Origin: Owenia fusiformis
Taxonomy: Eukaryota
Assembly: GCA_903813345.2 (NCBI GenBank)
Contig: CAIIXF020000001.1
Span: forward strand, 8,804,001-8,868,000
Reading direction: 5' to 3'
Length of the DNA stretch: 64,000 nucleotides
The translations under genes were made by a program, and so were the position numbers. A model generated the notes under the pieces. It did not search any database. It was not told where the DNA came from and worked only from the letters and a program-made list of their open reading frames with translations. Below are positions 5,383 through 30,914 of the stretch, one piece after another (the stretch's first letter is position 1; every line of letters begins with the position of its first letter).

Positions 5383-6252
5383 TGTAGCGGTAGCACAATT
5401 TTTATTATTAATTATATTCGTTCATTAATTACACATTGATACATTTTACTTTTAACATAACATTTATATGCGTTAAAAAGAGCAGAGTGTCCCCTTTTTA
5501 ATGGTTTTTACCCCGTGTAAATCAGATTAGTATTTTTCGAGTTATGACAATTTGAAAAACATGAGTAAATTGAGATTATTTCGTTTTGTCGGCACTGCCG
5601 TAATAGTTGTCCAGCTTTAGCGATCAATAATTTACTTAGATCTTGGACGGGTCACTTTGAAGTTTTAATTAGTTTGACAAGTTGACAGCTTGGGCTGGTC
5701 TCCGCCCCCTTAATTTGCATATTTCTCGAACGATCGTAAGACTTTTGTTGGGAAAGTCAGTCCTGAGTTTGTATCTGAAGAGATAGGAGGTTCAATTTCT
5801 CCATTTTTATAAAGTCTCAAGTTTTAGTATTCTGCGAGCATCTCAGTGTTTGGATTATTACACTCATTTGATCATACAAGTGGATTTATCATATAACTGG
5901 ATTTATAGCTGGATTTATAATTGGATTATACTTATTGGATTTAACGGATTATTGTCATCATGTCATACACACCTGTAAGGTAAATAAAGTTATTTGTTGT
6001 TTATTGTCTAGAAATCGAAATCATATCTTTTGTTCAGTTATTCTTCATGCAGTAAATTACAATATCCATTAGTGACCATTAAGATACAAATTCCTTTCAC
6101 GCACAAGACGTATCCACACATCATCTTTCCAGTGCCATTTATTGTTAAAGGGGTTTCCGCTCGGCCCAATTCATTCTTTCCAGTAATTATTATTTGGATC
6201 ATTTTATTCCATACTGGTGAAAAACATTTCATTTTAAATAACTCCCGCCACA
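5383..6252 (+). repeat. 5' LTR (870 bp)
   Basis: Matches 12109-12978 with no differences seen by eye. Contains short TGGATTTA-like repeats (~5880-5950) and an AATAAA near 5984. Confidence 0.96.
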
Positions 6253-6253
6253 C

Positions 6254-6276
6254 TGTTGGCTTAGCGTTGGGATTCG
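6254..6276 (+). promoter_or_regulatory. Primer-binding site, tRNA-Leu-like (degenerate)
   Basis: TGTTGGCTTAGCGTTGGGATTCG lies 1 bp after the LTR. It resembles TGGTGGCAGCGGTGGGATTCG, the complement of a typical eukaryotic tRNA-Leu 3' end, with mismatches and a 2-nt insertion. Confidence 0.65.
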
Positions 6277-6732
6277 CAAGATATTGAATGTTATATTGTT
6301 GTTTCTATTGTGAGATAATATTTTGCATTTTCTTGTGGTGTTAAAGGCTTGTATCTGTCTCGCAAAACTTGAGATAACTTCACGGTAACTTTGCAGTGCA
6401 AACTTGGGACTCACCATTTATAATTCGGGGGGATTTTTCCTCACTGATGTCATTTCATTGTTTTATTAACAGTGCCCAAGTGAACTTTAGTAGTGTAAGT
6501 CGACCCAAATCGGATCTACATTGTTCATACTTGAGTACATGTATATGATAATACTCCTTAGCAATTGGTTTTCTACAGAATGCAGTAATAAAGGGTCCAT
6601 GTTAATTCGGTGGTCGTAAATCTGTATTTGAGAAACTAGTTCTTTGAGAGTTGTGATATATTGCAATATTGTATTGGTTGCAGGCGCCCGTAATTGTCCT
6701 GTATATTGTAATATTGTATTTTGTTTGAAGGT

Positions 6733-7163
6733 GCCCAGAATTTTATATTCTGCGCGGAGCTCCATAGAGAGACATTATATTGGGTAATTATTAAAACTCA
6801 ACCTTGTATTATTAGCCCAGGGTAACACCTGCGCGGAGCTCCTGTGTGAGACATATAGTTGAGTAATCTCTGAACCCAATATTGTATATTTTAGCCCAGG
6901 AGCAATCCTGCGCGAAGCTCGGACTGGAAAATTTATTTACCGTTCGGAGCAATACTCATTGATAATATTTGCCCAGGAGCAATCCTGCGCGGAGCCCATA
7001 AGGGACATTTATTAAATTTGCAAAGCACATTGTGTTATTATTATATTGCCCAGGTTAATCCCTGCGCGGAGCTCTTAATGAGACATTTATGAAAATATTG
7101 TGAGTATAAAATTTCTGTGAATTGCCCAGGTTTATTCCTGCGCGGAGCCTCTGAGAAGGACAT
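6733..7163 (+). repeat. Array of six interspaced structured repeats in the retroelement 5' leader
   Basis: Units start at 6733, 6815, 6894, 6971, 7048 and 7124. Consensus is GCC-CAGG(loop)CCTG-CGCGGAG-stem(loop)stem-ACAT, separated by AT-rich, largely unique spacers. Confidence 0.9.
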
Positions 7164-7443
7164 ACATTTATCTTGATAGAGTTGACTCTCAATGAAATTG
7201 ATTGTGAGGAAAATTTCTGATCACTGTAGAGTAGTCAATGTGTTGAGTTGTCTGCGAAGTGAGCACTGAACAGGGAGGGGACAATGTAATGATGTGTTCA
7301 TGGAGTCTCCACTGAAAGGGTGTACATTCAATTGTGCAACCCTTCCCCCACTCTTATAGTGATCTTGAATTTTTCTATTATTTTGAGAGTTTGCTCATTC
7401 ATGATATAATTATAAACACAGAATAGAATCATTGCTCATCAAT

Positions 7444-10400
7444 ATGGCATCTGACCGAGACTCTGATCAGATGGATTTAACACAATGTGCAAACAGCGCT
7501 CGCTCGAGCCCAGATAATACTGTTTTTATCAAAGGGAATAATAAAGAAATAGATAATCCCTTGGCCTCAGATAATACTGTTACGTGGCAGAATGAAATGC
7601 GCCTTGCTCAAGGGCCTGGTGCTATTTTGAAAAATTTTGAATCTGTCAGAGTGCCAAAAAGTACAGGCTATTGGTCACGGGAGAATGATCCATTGTTCAG
7701 CCCCGTAAATGAGCTCACAAATGAGGGAGTAAAGCCTGCTCCTCGAACATCCACAGTGATGCGTTCCTCAGATGCTGAAAATGCTAAATCAATGAGTGAA
7801 CAAATTGGCTATTTGTGGAGCAATATTGAGCTCATCAACCATAAATTTGATAAAATTGATAGCAACTTGGATATGAGTGCTCTTGAGAAAAATGTTTCCA
7901 TGGCAGTAGCTCAAGCACTGGTCCCTGTTCTGAAAACAGGTGTTAATTCAGCAGTTGCTGAGGCAATGGCTCCAGTAATAGAAATGAGCCAAAATCAAAA
8001 TATGGCCCTACAAGAGCAAATGAATGAAAGTCTCTCCAAACAGAAATCTGAATTGCTCAAACTGATAAATAGTAAGACTGTTATGGAAGAGAAAATTTCA
8101 CATGATGAAGTGAAGTTATCACACATGTATGATAATGAGAGGACTCATGAGGAGCAATCAAGAGATTTTAAGAGGAAAGAAATTTCTCCTCCTCCTCCTC
8201 CTCCTCCTCGGCCATATGCTCTAAAAAGACAGAGCGCATTTTATCAGCCTCATTCTCATAGAGAAAATGAGTTGCTTGCTCCTGAGCAAAAAGTACCTGC
8301 TAGTGTATACGCTCAGCCAGGTGAGAGAAATGTTATGTTTGCTCCTCCTAATACGCCAACTTCTGAGCGAAGTGAATTGTATAGGAGTGGAGTTCAGAGT
8401 AGCTCAGACTCTGGAGCAAGCAGAAGTGCTGCTCATGAGGAGTACACTCCTCCTCTTACTATGGATAATGAGCATTCTCTCAATAATCAAGGAGTCCAGA
8501 GTAGCTCAGATTCTGGAGCAAGCCGGAGTGTTGCTCATGAGGAGTACACTCCTCCTCTTGCAATGAAAAATGAGCATTACAATGAGCAACATTATGAGCA
8601 AGATGAGCGCTCCAGTAGATATTTTGAAAATGTTCATGATTTAACTCATTCTCTCCAAAATGCTCAAGGAGAAAAGAGAAGCTCTTCTTTTATGAATGAG
8701 CGTAAAAAGAGACATGAGCAAGATAATGATGAATTTACCTCATATAACTCTCAAAGAGAGGCCTATGGCTCCTCTTATATGATGAACGCATTTAGAGATG
8801 TTACTCAAACACTCTCAGATGTGGTAAAATCTGTATCATCCAGGCAAAATAATGATAAGGCTGTGAAAATCAGACCTGATAAATATGAGGGTACATCCCC
8901 ATGGCTAGATTATGTGAGACACTTTGAAGTGTGCTCTTCCTCCAATAGATGGAGTGATATTGAAAAACGAGATTTTCTAGCTTCTAGCTTACGTGGCCAA
9001 GCTCAACAAATCTTGAATGAGGTTGAATTAGAGTACACCTATCAAGATTTGGTTAATGCATTGAGTAAACGATTTGGCCCTGAGGGTAAAGCAAAATTGT
9101 ATGAGGCTGAATTTAATAATCGTCAGCAAAGACCTCATGAGCCAATACAAAAGCTGGCGCAAGATATGAGAAGGCTCGCAGCCTTAGCATATCCTGAAAT
9201 GTCACGAGAGGCCCAAGATAGGTTGGCCCGTGCCAGGTTCCAACATGCTTTACTGGATGATCAAATCCGGGAAACAATTAATATAAAGGAACCAGAGACT
9301 CTAGATAGAGCAGTGATAATTGCTCTCAAGCAAGAGTCATATCTTGAGTCAGAGAGGATTCGAAAGAGTTCGAAACTAAAGTCCCCAACAGATGAAATGT
9401 CTGCTATTGATGAAAGGCTAGAATCTGATGATTCAGCTGAAATAAGTGCTCTTAATGAGGCTGATAAATTAGAGCAAATTATGGCTAAATTATTGGCAGC
9501 GCAGAATGCGCAAGCTACAGCCCAGATTGATAACTTTGAGAAAATGTTGGCTGGATTTTCAGAGAAAATACCTCAACAAAAACCTCGAGCTGAAGTGACC
9601 TGTTTCTATTGTGGAAAGAAAGGACACATAAGTAGAAAATGCAGCTCTCGAAATGGAGGAAAGAAAATTGATTCCTCAGTTGCTCCTCCAAAGTTTGTGG
9701 AGTTAGAAACTCCCGAGGGTGAGGTATATGGCAGCCAAGTTGTGAGCATGTCAAATGATAAATCTGGTTTTGCGGCCAAAGAGGAAATGAATGAGGCACA
9801 AATAGAGCATTGCCAGTATCAGCCCATAGAGACTGAGCAAGAGAAGGCGAACTCTGTTATAGAGAGCCCTTCCAGAGTTACCTCATCACCAGTAGATACA
9901 GACATTGAGTGTGTTCATGTCGATTTCTCTAATAGAAAGAAGCTGCTAGATTTTGATGTTCGCTCATCAAAGTTGAGTAGCATAGAGCACCAGAGCACAA
10001 AGAGGAAATATGATCCTCTGAATTCCCTCTCTGGTAAATGTTATGCTCATGTTGAAAATGGGAATTGTATAAATGATAAAACAAGTTCTAAGTGTAGGAA
10101 CTTGGAGCGCCAGAGCACAAAGAGGAAATATTATCCTCTGAATTCCCTCTCTGGAGAAAACAGCGCTCATATAATGGAAGGGAATAAAACTGATAATGAA
10201 AGTAGCTCTACAGATAGGAGCACAGAGCCCCAGAGCAAAAAGAGGAAATGCGCACCTCTGAGTTCCCTCTCTGGAAAAATGAATGCTCATTATGATAAAG
10301 GGAGCACTGAATATAGGAGCTCGGAAAACCAGAGCATGAGGAGAATTGAATCTCCAGCTCCTCCTCCTGAAAAATGTAATAATAGCGCACAGGGAGCAAA

Positions 10401-10923
10401 TGATGAGGAGAGCTCTGGTTGTAAAATTCTCTCAAATTGCTCAATGAGAGAAACAAAATCTGTAGAGAAGAGCACTGTGTATGAGGACAAAACATTGGCA
10501 ACTGAAATGCTCACTCATTTAGAAGAGGTCCTCAAAACTAGCTCAGAGAGAATGAGTAATGAACCGGTGTTAGAGTTCACAAAAACGGAGGGAAAGATAA
10601 ATGAGCAGCATGTAGAGCTCTCAAGAGTGTCAACTGCACTCCTCCCTTCAGTGACTGAAACCTCTCAGATTGATAAAGCGTCCACAGAGTTTGCACTCCC
10701 GTGGAAAAACAGTGCAGCTCCCATCTTACAATTGCGAGCAACTCATATGTTTAAAACACATTGCACTGTTGTATTGTACTCCTGTTCTCTACATGAACTG
10801 GAGCGTTTTCTTTCCAGGACCAGCGATGAATATGTGTGTGCTCATGTGAAAGCCTCTGTACCCAGGGACTGGAAGAAGAGGAAAAAGGTGCAAAGTGACT
10901 ATAATGAAGATGTTATAAGATGA
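7444..10923 (+). CDS. gag: Retrotransposon Gag-like polyprotein (~1159 aa from ATG 7444) with capsid-like region and CCHC zinc knuckle; no protease, RT, RNase H or integrase
   Basis: ORF track 7432..10923 (first ATG at 7444). Gag signature KIRPDKYEGTSPWLDYVRHFEVCSSSNRWSDIEKRDFLASSLRGQA...RQQRPHEPIQKLAQDMRRLAALAYP. Zinc knuckle CFYCGKKGHISRKC. No D[TS]G or YxDD motif. Confidence 0.9.
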   Translation: MASDRDSDQMDLTQCANSARSSPDNTVFIKGNNKEIDNPLASDNTVTWQNEMRLAQGPGAILKNFESVRVPKSTGYWSRENDPLFSPVNELTNEGVKPAPRTSTVMRSSDAENAKSMSEQIGYLWSNIELINHKFDKIDSNLDMSALEKNVSMAVAQALVPVLKTGVNSAVAEAMAPVIEMSQNQNMALQEQMNESLSKQKSELLKLINSKTVMEEKISHDEVKLSHMYDNERTHEEQSRDFKRKEISPPPPPPPRPYALKRQSAFYQPHSHRENELLAPEQKVPASVYAQPGERNVMFAPPNTPTSERSELYRSGVQSSSDSGASRSAAHEEYTPPLTMDNEHSLNNQGVQSSSDSGASRSVAHEEYTPPLAMKNEHYNEQHYEQDERSSRYFENVHDLTHSLQNAQGEKRSSSFMNERKKRHEQDNDEFTSYNSQREAYGSSYMMNAFRDVTQTLSDVVKSVSSRQNNDKAVKIRPDKYEGTSPWLDYVRHFEVCSSSNRWSDIEKRDFLASSLRGQAQQILNEVELEYTYQDLVNALSKRFGPEGKAKLYEAEFNNRQQRPHEPIQKLAQDMRRLAALAYPEMSREAQDRLARARFQHALLDDQIRETINIKEPETLDRAVIIALKQESYLESERIRKSSKLKSPTDEMSAIDERLESDDSAEISALNEADKLEQIMAKLLAAQNAQATAQIDNFEKMLAGFSEKIPQQKPRAEVTCFYCGKKGHISRKCSSRNGGKKIDSSVAPPKFVELETPEGEVYGSQVVSMSNDKSGFAAKEEMNEAQIEHCQYQPIETEQEKANSVIESPSRVTSSPVDTDIECVHVDFSNRKKLLDFDVRSSKLSSIEHQSTKRKYDPLNSLSGKCYAHVENGNCINDKTSSKCRNLERQSTKRKYYPLNSLSGENSAHIMEGNKTDNESSSTDRSTEPQSKKRKCAPLSSLSGKMNAHYDKGSTEYRSSENQSMRRIESPAPPPEKCNNSAQGANDEESSGCKILSNCSMRETKSVEKSTVYEDKTLATEMLTHLEEVLKTSSERMSNEPVLEFTKTEGKINEQHVELSRVSTALLPSVTETSQIDKASTEFALPWKNSAAPILQLRATHMFKTHCTVVLYSCSLHELERFLSRTSDEYVCAHVKASVPRDWKKRKKVQSDYNEDVIR

Positions 10924-12095
10924 GACTATAGACGATACCACTAGATCAAAATGGATATATGATCATTGAGAAACTATATGTGCTGATATTTCAGACTGAG
11001 CAATTACAGGGACTCATCTCATAAAAGAGAGCATTGGACACCACTTAATGCCTGATGTATAGTTTGGAGCCAAGAACATTTGCAGATCTTGTGTCATCTT
11101 GCATATGAGAATGTTGGAAAAACTAGAACTTATGAGAAGCTAATGAGTTTTGTAGTTTGGTAATTTAGTAATAATCATATCCACTTTCATAATAAGTAGT
11201 TCTTTAGGATTTTTGATAATGCTCATGAGTATTTGATGAGGAGAATTTTCATTATGATGTTTTCATGTTAAACTTACCTACTCCTCGTGATATTGGAGGA
11301 AAACTCTTGAGAAGTTTTGGTGTATTTTATAGATGATGAGTTTTCTCCTCATTCTCCTCATTTTGAGAAATTATTTTCCTCATTTATATTTTGGAGTTGT
11401 TTGGGAGGAAAATGATAAAATATGTTTTACTCATTTTAGTTTGGAGCATGCTCAATGAGCATTTGTGTTACATAGTATATGGTTGTAAGGATAACTCTGT
11501 TCATGGAACTGAAGAGTAACATTTACATGTGCCTCATATAACTGAAGTTTTGTTGAGAAGTTTTCACACTTAGAGTAATGTGTTTTTTATCTGCTCATTT
11601 TGGAGAAAATATTTTCCTCATAATGTGTTCATGAAAAATGATAAAATATGAGAAAATTATTCTCCTCTTGAGCTCATTTTAGTTAATAGTATTCTATGTG
11701 GGAGTGTAAGCCATGATGGCTTCAGTAAATATTTGTATTTGTTTAAGGAGAACAGTTTTGGTAAAATCTTTGTGTTCTCCAGAGTATAAGGTGGGCTCAG
11801 CTCAATGAGCAACTACCTTGTAACATAATATTTTCAGAGTTTCTCCTTTTTGTCTTATCTACTCATCGTAGCTTAACTTGAGTAAATTTTGGAAAACTTT
11901 TGAAATAGTTATATTGAGATTAAAGTAAAGGATAATCTGCTCTTTGCTCATTTGTAAAACTTAAGATATTTTTGCTCTTGAGGAAAACTTGTATAGCTGA
12001 GTTAAGAGTTACTCATTTTTGCAAATTGATAAAAATTGTTTTCCGCCTGCTCCTCTTTGTGTAACCATGCATGTATGAGGACATACATATTTCTT

Positions 12096-12108
12096 AAGTT
12101 GGGGGATG
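12096..12108 (+). promoter_or_regulatory. Polypurine tract (PPT)
   Basis: AAGTTGGGGGATG immediately precedes the 3' LTR. Confidence 0.75.
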
Positions 12109-12978
12109 TGTAGCGGTAGCACAATTTTTATTATTAATTATATTCGTTCATTAATTACACATTGATACATTTTACTTTTAACATAACATTTATATGCGTT
12201 AAAAAGAGCAGAGTGTCCCCTTTTTAATGGTTTTTACCCCGTGTAAATCAGATTAGTATTTTTCGAGTTATGACAATTTGAAAAACATGAGTAAATTGAG
12301 ATTATTTCGTTTTGTCGGCACTGCCGTAATAGTTGTCCAGCTTTAGCGATCAATAATTTACTTAGATCTTGGACGGGTCACTTTGAAGTTTTAATTAGTT
12401 TGACAAGTTGACAGCTTGGGCTGGTCTCCGCCCCCTTAATTTGCATATTTCTCGAACGATCGTAAGACTTTTGTTGGGAAAGTCAGTCCTGAGTTTGTAT
12501 CTGAAGAGATAGGAGGTTCAATTTCTCCATTTTTATAAAGTCTCAAGTTTTAGTATTCTGCGAGCATCTCAGTGTTTGGATTATTACACTCATTTGATCA
12601 TACAAGTGGATTTATCATATAACTGGATTTATAGCTGGATTTATAATTGGATTATACTTATTGGATTTAACGGATTATTGTCATCATGTCATACACACCT
12701 GTAAGGTAAATAAAGTTATTTGTTGTTTATTGTCTAGAAATCGAAATCATATCTTTTGTTCAGTTATTCTTCATGCAGTAAATTACAATATCCATTAGTG
12801 ACCATTAAGATACAAATTCCTTTCACGCACAAGACGTATCCACACATCATCTTTCCAGTGCCATTTATTGTTAAAGGGGTTTCCGCTCGGCCCAATTCAT
12901 TCTTTCCAGTAATTATTATTTGGATCATTTTATTCCATACTGGTGAAAAACATTTCATTTTAAATAACTCCCGCCACA
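12109..12978 (+). repeat. 3' LTR (870 bp)
   Basis: Direct copy of 5383-6252, followed by the ATAT TSD. Confidence 0.96.
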
Positions 12979-19260: not shown

Positions 19261-19570
19261 CATAGACCATTATAATGACAAACATGATATCTTCATTGCA
19301 AAGCATCAACATACTGATCAGGAGCACATAGACCATGATAATGACAAACATGATAGCTTCATTGCAAAGCATCAACATACTGATCAGGACCACATAGACC
19401 ATGATAATGACAAACATGATCTTCATTGCAAACCATCAATATACTGGTTAGGACCACTAAGACCATGATAAAAGCACATGTGATATCTTCATTGCAAACC
19501 ATCAACATACTGATCAGGACCACATAGACCATGATAATGACATACATGATGTCTTCATTGCAAAGCATCA
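19261..19570. repeat. ~60-bp minisatellite, about 5 copies
   Basis: Repeated unit CATAGACCATGATAATGACAAACATGATATCTTCATTGCAAAGCATCAACATACTGATCAGGAC. Confidence 0.9.
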
Positions 19571-22500
19571 TGATACTTGTCGTCAGGACTGAACTGTAGA
19601 CGATGATAATGACATAATATAACTATAGAAATACTTGTTCCAAAGGCTATGAAAATATAAATCAACAGTAAGATGTTCAACTCACACAGGTTTATATAGT
19701 TCATCAACAGGCAATCTCCCCAAGTGTTCAGTCTTCCACCTGTCTGATTACTTTGTTTTCCTTGCAACTGTCCTTGATGACAGGGAAGCAACAAGTCTTT
19801 GAATTCCAATATATGCTTCTATTCTTATACATCCAGTGACTATAACTCTTGTAGATAACACCAGAAAGTTGCACAAAGTGGTAAGCAACTAGTTAGCTGG
19901 CTAAATGATCATAATGAAATACATTCTTCAGTTCAAGATACTCTAAAGGCTAAAGCATATCTTTCTATCACTGGAGCAAATGTTTTCCATCACCCCTCAT
20001 CATTTGTTAGTCTATATTACACAACAGCCTTCAGATGTTTGTATTTCTGCTTGGTTTGTATCTTACTAGATGTGTGGCAGCATATAACCATCATATGTTT
20101 GGAAAAGCTAGCATCTCAGTATCAATGCATCATTTTGCATCCTTTTTATGTCATTTTTGCCTTTGTTTGACTGGATCTGTTATCAATATTACATGTGCTA
20201 TATTGTAGCATATGACCATTCCCACGGCATAAGAAAACAAGAAGCACAGATTTAGATTTAGAACTCTCATTTTGAGCTTGCAAGGAGGCTTCCAGGCTGA
20301 CCTTGGTGTGGTTCAACTTCTTAAAAGAAAATGTGGCTTCACAAAACAAATAAACAAAGGACTCCTCAAATGATTGAAAGGGTGATCTACACATGGTTTG
20401 GCGACTTCAAAGTCATCATATAGCTAATTCATAATAGGTGTTGATGGTAAATCAGGGATAAGGGAAAGAAATCGACCTCCATAAGTAAATATATCAATCA
20501 ATGTCAAATACACATAACACACAGACATGCAAGTTCTCTATGTTTAACATCAGCTACAACAAGTCAGCAGATGACTCCATGGACGAAGGTCATTTTGGCC
20601 TTCTGCATGTCATTTTGGCTTTTAGAGAAGGGCACACCACTGTGGGATCCTGCAGTATCCCTTAGAGTACAAGCTTCAGATAAAGAGCAACACTGATGAA
20701 TCTAAATGAGGGTGTATTGCTGTTGGCTAAATGGTGAAAGACCTTTGTCAATGCAAATGAATGTTGGGCACTCTTGTTGATGTTGTTTGAAATAAGACAT
20801 TGTGCTATTTTAATAATTTCTTCACATCTAGAATATGATCGTTAATTGGTGATGTGATCTTCCATATTCCATCTATCTAGAACTACAGATGCTTGATTTT
20901 GGATATTGAGATGTCTGCAATGCTAGAGGCAGTACAATCAAAAATTACTTATTGAAATCAAATATTCTTGTGAAAACAGAAGCATGTTCCAGTATGTTTT
21001 GATGACCCTATTGAATTAACAGAACATTTCAATCAATATAACTCCTCTTAATCTATATCAAAAAAATCTTTTTCTTGAGTCTTATATCTTGGAATAATAT
21101 TTGCTTTGGAATGCTTGCACAATTTTTTAATGTGTTGCTTAGAAAAATTGTTAACATTGACTACAATAGATGCTGTTCATTTAGCCTTCAATAAGACTGT
21201 GAAGATATATTGACCAACTCGATAACAATCTTGTGTGAAACAACATTAAATGTTATTTTTTACTTACCCTCAACCCAATAACTCACATTGAACATTTTGT
21301 AATATACATTTGCATTTGTGTAATTATGACCATTTTCTAGAATTACAAAGGAACTAATCCTTGTTCTTTGTATGTCCCAAATATGATTTCAATTTATATA
21401 ATGTGCATAATGATATTTCATTTTAATTTGATCTTTCAGTCAAACCATACTTCAAATATTCAATGAACACACATATCTCCATGGCAACATCAATATTAAA
21501 ACATGACTTGAAGTTACTATTGTAATAAAATACTAAATTCAAACGTGAGAAATGAAACATCTATACAATGAGATGAGATAAGGTATACCCCTGAGTTATT
21601 TTCATCTAATAAAGTTTCTAATCATCAGCTTCTTTATGTATTGGGTTACAATAAAAACAGATCAATTATATATGTGATAAACTCGAAAAATAAATCATGA
21701 GTAAAAAATCAAAGATACCAACTACCACGTTAACCTACTGTATGAAGCTCAACTTAAAATAGTAAAGTTCATTATTTTGTGTATGTGTAGATATCACTAA
21801 TGAACAATTTCAACAGTAACCTCTGAAGTCATTTACAATACTTATTATCTGATAGGAAAATATATAGGAATAGCATAGTATAATAGTATCATTATGGATT
21901 TTGGAACTTCCTTATGATTTAGAATTTTGGCAAGGTGGAAATAATTTGTGACATCACACTTCATAATCATTTGTGACTTTACTTACTAACACTAAACCCC
22001 AAACCTTGAAAATAAAGTTTAACAAAAATGCAAGGGGCAATATTTTATAACAGAATAAAACCCAAATACCGAAAAGCCTATATGAACCATACCAGTCAAT
22101 ACAAAATATGATGTAATTTTAGAATATAGGACAGATTCATATTTTAAACCACTCGGATTTACTTCCAAAACATGTTGTAGTTGTCTGGTAAGATTATTCC
22201 AACCAACTTGAAAACAAAGTACTGGTTACCACAGATACAGAAAAGCATGTAATGCATACTATGAACCAAACCTGGCAGAAAAAAGAAAACAGATTTTTAG
22301 CCTCATTATAGGAATGTTGATTTGAAGATGAATAATATATTTGTTAATGCATGTCCTAATTTATATCTATTATGTATAATACATACTGGCACCTGGGGCG
22401 GATCTAGGAACCAACAAGGCGGGGGCCAAATGTAATGACCAAAAAAGACCCACGTTTTGGGGTTTAAGGCCTTTTTGGCCCAAATTTGTTTTGCCCCCCC

Positions 22501-30575: not shown

Positions 30576-30727
30576 TTATGATTTTTGCGAAAAAGTCCCG
30601 TCATTTTTAAAGCGGCGGCCATCTTGAAAATTTTTTTTTTGCGTAAAACTATTCATCAATATACATCTTTCCACCAAATATGAAGAAAATCCGTCAACTA
30701 ATATTTGAGTTATCTTCCGGACGGACG

Positions 30728-30758
<31 letters not shown>

Positions 30759-30914
30759 GGACGGACGGACGGACGGACGGACGGACGGACGGACGGACGG
30801 ACGGACGGACGGACGGACGGACGGACGGACGGACGGACGGACGGACGGACGGACGGACGGACGGACGGAGGGCTTAACTATGTCCCTACCGAACTTCGTT
30901 CGTTGGGATAATAA
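30576..30914 (-). mobile_element. Helentron-associated (HINE/DINE-1-like) element with (CGTC)n microsatellite, truncated
   Basis: Minus-strand 5' end TTATTATCCCAACGAACGAAGTTCGGTAGGGAC, then (CGTC)n at ~30717-30868 and AAGATGGCCGCC motifs. Similar to the start of the element at 57368. Confidence 0.75.

Follow-up and report, generated by a model that had tools for sequence, protein, structure and literature searches.

A stretch of 64,000 nucleotides from Owenia fusiformis (GenBank assembly GCA_903813345.2, contig CAIIXF020000001.1, positions 8,804,001 to 8,868,000 of the forward strand), hereafter called the window, contains a long terminal repeat (LTR) retrotransposon that encodes Gag and no polymerase, and whose leader carries a head-to-tail array of six short units at positions 6733-7164. 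The array is real and under selection. The six units, a protected core shared by them, the pairing pattern within that core and the gag-only coding capacity of the element are all read directly from the DNA. Our favoured reading, tentatively held at a probability of about 0.35, is that the array consists of repeated binding modules for the zinc knuckle of the element's own Gag and acts as a packaging signal, a reading that rests on three covarying base pairs.

The units follow each other with a start-to-start spacing of 82, 79, 77, 77 and 76 bp, and are given below with their two stems, their linker and closing motif, their score (in bits) with a covariance model derived from their cores, and the z score of their fold in isolation.

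6733-6776, plus strand: unit 1, hairpin 1 CAGAA/TTCTG, GGAG, hairpin 2 CTC/GAG, ACAT; 49.8 bits; both hairpins in the isolated fold, z -1.86.
6815-6855, plus strand: unit 2, hairpin 1 CAGG/CCTG, GGAG, hairpin 2 CTC/GAG, ACAT; 54.8 bits; isolated fold z 0.00.
6894-6934, plus strand: unit 3, degenerate, hairpin 1 CAGGA/TCCTG with a GCAA loop, GAAG, hairpin 2 broken by an outer C.A mismatch, AAAT; 42.8 bits; isolated fold with hairpin 1 only, z -0.26.
6971-7009, plus strand: unit 4, hairpin 1 CAGGA/TCCTG with a GCAA loop, GGAG, hairpin 2 CCC/GGG, ACAT; 51.7 bits; isolated fold z -2.27.
7048-7087, plus strand: unit 5, hairpin 1 CAGG/CCTG, GGAG, hairpin 2 CTC/GAG, ACAT; 53.9 bits; isolated fold z -1.17.
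7124-7164, plus strand: unit 6, hairpin 1 CAGG/CCTG, GGAG, hairpin 2 CCT/AGG, ACAT; 55.9 bits; isolated fold z -0.24.

The unit core can be written as GCCCAGG-loop-CCTGCGC-GGAG-3 bp stem-loop-ACAT and measures 39-44 nt, with AT-rich spacers of 38, 38, 36, 38 and 36 nt between successive cores. Hairpin 1 is formed by GCCCAGG and CCTGCGC, whose six pairs flank a C.C mismatch that every unit retains; units 1, 3 and 4 have an extra A-U pair. Its loop has 4-7 nt, being GCAA in units 3 and 4, whose hairpin 1 is identical, and the distance between its two half-sites is constant in five of the six units. Hairpin 1 is followed by an unpaired GGAG, then by hairpin 2, which has a 3-bp stem and a loop of 4-6 nt, and finally by ACAT as the unit end. 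GGAG and ACAU are constant in all units except unit 3 (junction CGCGAAG), the loops vary in both sequence and length, and the distance from GAGC to GACAT ranges from 7 to 9 nt among the units. The original prediction, made on this DNA from its letters, had listed the same six units with the same spacing, which is borne out both by the reading of the sequence and by motif matches, and had given the stem variants of both hairpins and the degeneracy of unit 3 exactly as they are found here. It had also taken CGCGGAG for a near-invariant single-stranded junction; this holds for GGAG, which is unpaired, whereas the flanking GC/GC pairs with its opposite arm and extends hairpin 1 around the C.C mismatch.

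When up to two mismatches were allowed, the 12-mer CCTGCGCGGAGC was matched 8 times in the window, against a chance expectation of 0.30, and none of 100 shuffles reached this number. Six of these matches lie in the array, all on the plus strand and with no or one mismatch. The covariance model was likewise run over the window, where the six cores scored 42.8-55.9 bits and the next match, at 10.7 bits, came from hairpin 1, a palindrome, read on the reverse strand. No further unit was found in the window with this model, the best match outside the array reaching 8.8 bits (E value 1.9). Tandem Repeats Finder makes no call at the array, because the whole units are too diverged.

Cores and spacers have fared very differently. 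Mean pairwise identity was 74% among the cores and 54.5% among the spacers, compared with 52.1% (standard deviation 1.3) for shuffled spacers. The observed spacer alignment score was reached by 7 of 200 shuffles, and the spacers after units 1 and 2 lie in a 39-nt repeat with 77% identity. This residual similarity implies that the spacers are a decayed monomer and not unrelated inserts. Judging from these alignments, the array is an old tandem repeat of about 77 bp whose spacers have decayed almost to randomness and whose discontinuous core of about 30 nt has been kept. The period, held at 76-82 bp despite the decay of the spacers, hints at a constraint on spacing. The core is thus far better kept than the spacers, and the CRISPR-like (clustered regularly interspaced short palindromic repeats) layout that had been proposed fails, since what separates the cores is a single monomer in decayed copies. 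A CRISPR array as such was rejected on repeats only 74% alike, spacers with residual homology and a eukaryotic LTR element as host. Two other origins were discarded: coding repeats, given a period indivisible by 3 and no open reading frame (ORF) over the array, and a satellite independent of the element, since array and remaining element had about the same sequencing depth in one of the runs described below (X1).

For the count of base pairing, the six units were aligned by fitting them to the model, which gave nine pairs and 54 cells. Standard pairs are formed in 53 of the 54 cells, and the lone unpaired cell is found in the degenerate unit 3. Three of the nine pairs (4 cells) are changed on both sides, and one-sided changes are absent. 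Of the double changes, G-C to A-U occurs in hairpin 1 of unit 1, U-A to C-G in hairpin 2 of units 4 and 6, and C-G to U-A in hairpin 2 of unit 6; together they represent at least three separate events, all of them between transition pairs, which would fit a passage through wobble intermediates. In 500 shuffles of the columns, the observed percentage of paired cells and the observed covariation score were never reached, and the number of pairs changed on both sides was reached 8 times. Sliding the 3' partners by 1-3 columns lowered pairing to 24-61%. Matched changes in both arms would disfavour a protein dimer sitting on a DNA palindrome, and a protected core combined with stems that change in matched fashion speaks for a nucleic-acid fold rather than a plain DNA site. 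The covariation evidence appears real yet thin, and selection on base pairing is judged to have somewhat better than even odds.

The distribution of changes among copies of the element was also considered. The leader sequence occurs in 20 listed sequencing runs from 6 studies, all under one organism label, and no RNA run is among the indexed runs listed with it. Two contig runs (X1 and X2) and two raw RNA runs were compared with positions 5383-8200. In both X1 and X2 this region is represented by several variant contigs, and over 6940-7164 one of these is identical to the window and another differs by 15 substitutions and 2 gaps. A second subfamily, about 7% diverged, is seen over the same positions. 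Among the 41 substitution positions listed of 189, 11 fall inside the array: none in the stems or in GGAG, one in ACAT (6853), three in hairpin 2 loops (6844, 6998 and 6999) and seven in spacers or tails. The listed insertions or deletions, at 7014, 7109 and 7166, are all in spacers. Loose ends lead into extra units whose stems are unchanged and whose loops are new (CAGG-TTCACG-CCTG, CTC-CTTGA-GAG and CCC-ATAAA-GGG). A skip of 187 nt, running from 6523 to 6711 upstream of the array, is also seen in runs X1 and X2. About 6% of each raw RNA run was compared and yielded 19 and 26 matching reads, some of them over the array, numbers too small to tell strand, ends or expression.

Folding was predicted for isolated units, for the whole leader and with a limited span. 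In five of the six isolated units, the minimum-energy fold has both hairpins and leaves GGAG unpaired. When the whole leader is folded, a high probability is retained for hairpin 1 in units 1 (0.92) and 3 (0.68) alone, and for hairpin 2 in unit 4 alone (0.97). With pairs limited to a span of at most 80 nt, the probability of hairpin 1 is 0.93-0.98 in five of the six units, and that of hairpin 2 is 0.98 in unit 4, 0.48 in unit 1 and at most 0.16 elsewhere.

The element that carries the array comprises the following parts.

5383-6252, plus strand: 5' LTR, 870 bp, TG...CA, letter-for-letter identical to 12109-12978 (offset 6726).
6257-6276, plus strand: putative primer-binding site (PBS), beginning with TGG 4 nt past the LTR, as read from the sequence.
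7444-10923, plus strand: gag ORF, 1159 amino acids, the only long ORF in the whole window.
10924-12108, plus strand: non-coding 3' internal region with no pol, ending in a G-rich tract (12101-12106) directly before the 3' LTR.
12109-12978, plus strand: 3' LTR, 870 bp, 100% identical to the 5' LTR.

The LTR pair has a 4-bp ATAT on both outer flanks, and the identity of its members points to a very recent insertion and to a family that is currently active. From the end of the 5' LTR to the gag AUG, the leader measures 1191 nt and the array occupies its middle, starting about 480 nt past the LTR end. The location originally proposed, between PBS and gag, is therefore upheld, downstream of the putative PBS and 5' of gag. 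A scan of the window for transfer RNA found no genes, leaving no local transfer RNA to match with the PBS-like site. In Gag, weak matches to PNMA, Retrotrans_gag and Ty3_capsid cover residues 487-640, and a single CCHC zinc knuckle (zf-CCHC) is found at residues 719-734. No pol ORF is present, and in the 3' internal region no stop-to-stop frame is longer than 57 amino acids, gag itself, which extends into the range listed, excepted. With its identical LTRs, its one ORF for Gag with a zinc knuckle and no pol, the element is the gag-only LTR element that had been described.

Relatives of the Gag core (residues 440-760) are numerous, 7870 being found at E≤0.001 in a representative library, the best of them 43% identical. 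In a protein atlas, Gag falls among generic gag clusters, in one of which Mollusca is the commonest phylum, which can be taken as a lead only. Six Gag relatives looked up by cluster had no informative names, and a word-index protein search for Gag relatives of near length found none. The gag ORF also contains in-frame tandem repeats at 8389-8578 (102 bp x 1.9, 89% matches) and 9979-10303 (120 bp x 2.7, 73% matches), which encode peptide modules in the N- and C-terminal extensions of the protein; these extensions have no Pfam match.

Under the packaging reading, the array would be a cis-acting RNA element of the genomic transcript, present as six copies of one module made of a 6-bp hairpin with a conserved C.C mismatch, an exposed GGAG linker, a short second hairpin and ACAU. 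Each module would be a docking site for the single CCHC knuckle, that is, the nucleocapsid part, of the element's own Gag. The six sites together would nucleate several Gag molecules on the element RNA, and the RNA would thereby be marked for packaging in particles that have to obtain their enzymes from an autonomous helper element. That RNA is the selected form, Gag the ligand and packaging the outcome is what we infer from the following. If an RNA fold is granted in the leader of an element whose sole product is a Gag with one CCHC knuckle, the knuckle is the most economical ligand, and GGAG is predicted to be unpaired in five of the six isolated units. Because the element has no pol, its RNA must compete for foreign particles, and dependence on helper enzymes makes a multi-site, high-avidity signal for its own Gag plausible.

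The proposed recognition is in line with what the passages of PMC7599994 drawn on here report for retroviruses. Retroviral zinc knuckles recognise exposed guanosines, the nucleocapsid protein of human immunodeficiency virus type 1 (HIV-1) binds a GGAG tetraloop, and the single knuckle of the nucleocapsid protein of Moloney murine leukaemia virus (MoMuLV) binds a 4-nt UCUG linker between two helices, with several sites thought to cooperate. Besides, repeats of one small structured motif recur as the building plan of packaging signals among single-stranded RNA viruses, according to the part of PMC8206606 consulted. It might further be speculated, with less assurance than for the packaging reading itself, that the element represents a gag-only non-autonomous type with a modular, copy-number-variable packaging signal (psi), in which the avidity of the repeats wins places in helper particles for a pol-less RNA.

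Several points weigh against the packaging reading. The covariation sample is limited to six units that are paralogues within a single element, with an alignment adapted to the structure and stems picked once the sequence had been inspected; a permutation argument made by hand comes to about 1/30 in the case of hairpin 2 and 1/6 in that of hairpin 1. Of the pairs in hairpin 1, five out of six are invariant, so that this hairpin can equally be read as conserved sequence, and every pair is of the Watson-Crick type, because of which the two strands are indistinguishable. On the thermodynamic side, the z scores of the isolated units given above are weak, and the 3-bp hairpin 2 reaches a probability of 0.5 or more in one of the six units in the global and span-limited folds alike. 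Folding of the array as a whole swaps most of the local hairpins on the plus strand for pairing between units, and the plus strand is not favoured, with a z score of -1.66 (6 of 100 shuffles) against -2.56 for the minus strand (2 of 100). Unit number also differs among copies, as seen in a back-joint from 6842 to 6744, in a hybrid of the unit 1 hairpin 1 with a hairpin 2 like that of unit 4, and in one junction that leaves only about 13 nt between units. Such variation in unit number and spacing means that the exact layout is not essential. We know of no tandemly repeated psi in any retrovirus or LTR retrotransposon, and a literature search, which was not exhaustive, turned up no tandemly repeated packaging signal in a retroelement. 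The original claim that compensatory stems point to selection on an RNA fold consequently stands in part: three pairs are changed on both sides, above the level of shuffles, but in six paralogous units only and with weak thermodynamics.

A further point of the same kind concerns a neighbouring stretch of the leader.

7170-7450, plus strand: structured stretch from the array to the gag AUG, with a minimum free energy of -83.5 kcal/mol and a z score of -3.28; 1 of 200 shuffles folds as well.

A long-range stem of this stretch is built on a 22-nt inverted repeat (7207-7228 with 7355-7376). The stretch may be a classical packaging, dimerisation or translation-control structure of the element, and this better-supported structure could be the real packaging or dimerisation element.

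Among the alternatives, the one that survives best, possible although not probable, is that the array acts on DNA, as six composite sites of about 30 bp for a factor encoded by the host or by the element, through which the LTR promoter would be enhanced, silenced or insulated. Such a role of leader repeats is well known in LTR retrotransposons and was missing from the candidate roles put forward originally. In the account of PMC8872304 used here, 19 of 49 LTR retrotransposons of Drosophila melanogaster have a tandemly repeated 5' untranslated region, and the leader repeats of gypsy, ZAM and Idefix exert insulator or enhancer activity on DNA through host proteins. Sireviruses offer a second precedent, the repeated palindromic motifs of their LTRs, with variable intervening bases, being read as transcription-factor sites in the portion of PMC2829016 cited. 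The Owenia array has conserved cores set in AT-rich variable spacers past the 5' LTR and ahead of gag, which is the layout of the known leader arrays. Its hairpin 1 pairs, five of six, and the 12-nt CCTGCGCGGAGC are fixed in sequence and not merely in pairing, the half-sites of hairpin 1 keep their distance in all units but one, and the period is maintained despite spacer decay. The weak thermodynamic support for an RNA fold points the same way, as does the CpG content. The observed/expected ratio of CpG is 0.92 in the LTR and 0.81 in the array, compared with 0.45 in the window and 0.35 in gag (GpC in the window, 1.02), a depletion in the window that suggests a methylating genome. Nevertheless, three pairs have two-sided changes and the five intact units show no one-sided one, a pattern unexpected for recognition of DNA by a protein, and the variation of 7-9 nt between GAGC and GACAT would be poorly tolerated by a rigid DNA site.

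The same pairing evidence that underlies the packaging reading would also apply to a structured RNA with another role, namely export, stability or localisation by way of a host protein that binds RNA, translational control of the leader, or dimerisation through pairing between units, an explanation we regard as unlikely. In the fold of the whole array, pairing does occur between the partly palindromic cores, the self-complementary GGAGCTCC of units 1 and 2 would permit RNA-RNA pairing, and a leader of 1191 nt calls for some handling of translation. On the other hand, GGAGCTCC is not kept in self-complementary form in units 3, 4 and 6, the loops are AU-rich and non-palindromic, making kissing loops improbable, and nothing points to any particular host factor.

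It is more doubtful still that the array is a functionless, decaying tandem duplication whose core and stem changes arose by chance or by repeat turnover through unequal crossing-over or conversion. Tandem repeats are common in retrotransposon leaders, at least in those treated in the consulted part of PMC8872304, and faint homology left in the spacers, the identical hairpin 1 of units 3 and 4, the variable number of units among copies and the decay of unit 3 would all be natural outcomes of such a history. Decay should, however, affect core and spacer alike, yet identity is 74% in the former and about 54% in the latter, where it is near the shuffled value; the changes listed for the second subfamily avoid the stems and GGAG; and conversion confined to a 30-nt core in every unit would be contrived. 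Finally, a processing signal freeing the spacers as small RNAs, or an array of self-cleaving ribozymes, has only the repeat-spacer layout with its uniform spacers of 36-38 nt in its favour and is highly improbable, as no Rfam match lies in 6733-7163 on either strand at E values up to 10, no pile-up of molecule ends was seen in the runs compared (with an RNA depth of only 19 and 26 reads), and the spacers are a decayed monomer and not diverse inserts.

The comparison with Rfam had been suggested alongside the original prediction, which counted a ribozyme among its candidates. Positions 5500-8500 were searched against Rfam 15 on both strands at E values up to 10, and the four weak matches obtained all fall outside 6733-7163, so that the array matches no described RNA family and the ribozyme finds no support there on either strand. 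Relatives of the array were also looked for elsewhere. Within the window, comparison of the element with the remaining sequence by blastn gave no match at E≤0.001, hence no second copy. A metagenome scan for two cores 55-80 nt apart returned at least 120 loci, and none of those listed has the motif of hairpin 1 plus core. The 11-mer CTGCGCGGAGC is frequent in these metagenome contigs (loci L001-L120), mostly at periods of 15 and its multiples, with others at, for example, 27 and 41, and the GC content of the contigs ranges from 0.36 to 0.73; these loci are taken to be repeats unrelated to the array. One of them (L097), AT-rich and with a spacing of 77, was considered as a homologous array and proved unrelated on reading. 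Scans for hairpin 1 plus core gave 4 viral and 120 listed prokaryote loci, all of them single matches, and no array; as none of these 124 listed loci has a GC content below 0.45 (median 0.68), they were rejected as homologues and attributed to chance. An alignment search for Gag in viral contigs yielded 63 pattern matches, none of which was confirmed by tblastn. In full-text literature, the core motif was met, by title, in incidental uses only, such as primers and unrelated genomes.

Two other repeats were noted in the window. A (CGGA)38 microsatellite occupies 30718-30869 (97% matches), and a 66-bp tandem repeat lies outside the element at 19261-19577, with 4.8 copies, a higher-order period of 130 bp and 86-87% matches.

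To our knowledge, how RNA is chosen for packaging in LTR retrotransposons other than those of yeast and retroviruses, and how non-autonomous elements compete for helper particles, is largely unknown. In this respect, a 40-nt module with a fixed GGAG linker, together with natural variation in unit number, would provide an unusually easy handle on the choice of RNA for packaging. Should the packaging reading be true, no tandemly repeated psi would have been described in a retroelement before this one, and the array would offer a simple natural setting in which to study how Gag counts sites. Should the array instead act on DNA, leader arrays of the gypsy/ZAM type with insulator or enhancer function would extend beyond insects, and its core would be a candidate binding site of about 30 bp for some factor. 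Under either reading, the array is a selected cis-element in a currently active family, as its identical LTRs indicate.

Among known systems, the closest in arrangement are the leader arrays of Drosophila elements (the Su(Hw) insulator of gypsy, ZAM, Idefix, Tirant and accord). As presented in the relevant part of PMC8872304, these likewise lie between the 5' LTR or PBS and gag and consist of several copies, variable in number, of a short conserved core in AT-rich variable sequence, and the Owenia array has both the location and the head-to-tail motifs by which leader arrays of the gypsy/ZAM type are recognised. They differ in acting on DNA via host proteins and are not described, in that part of the source, as covarying hairpins. 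By description, to which this comparison is confined, the Owenia array has a longer core (about 40 nt), a period of about 77 bp and matched stem changes, and belongs to a gag-only element. Retroviral psi, exemplified by the UCUG linker of MoMuLV and the GGAG of HIV-1, also resides in the leader downstream of the PBS, which in Owenia is a putative one. It likewise combines an unpaired G-containing tetranucleotide flanked by helices with a CCHC Gag and several sites presumed to cooperate, as set out in the excerpt of PMC7599994 used, features that in the Owenia array are predicted. Unlike the array, retroviral psi is a single complex fold and not a head-to-tail repeat of modules, and hairpin 2 of the array has only 3 bp.

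More distant parallels can also be drawn. Packaging signals of coronaviruses and alphaviruses, as covered in part by PMC8206606, similarly repeat a small structured motif that is thought to recruit several copies of the capsid protein; they belong to unrelated viruses, use other motifs and lie inside coding regions, so that the likeness concerns a possible way of working and not membership. The motifs of Sirevirus LTRs (RM) are, like the array, clustered, dyad-symmetric, CG-containing, non-coding and tied to CpG richness, but they are found in plants and in the LTR upstream of the TATA box (both points from the section of PMC2829016 consulted), whereas the array is part of the transcribed leader. 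With CRISPR arrays it shares no more than a visual likeness, that of regular repeats and uniform spacer length, and the context here is not prokaryotic. A repeat array in the leader of a retrotransposon is hence of a known kind, whereas a hairpin-GGAG-hairpin module whose stems show matched changes, carried by an element that encodes only Gag, is new.

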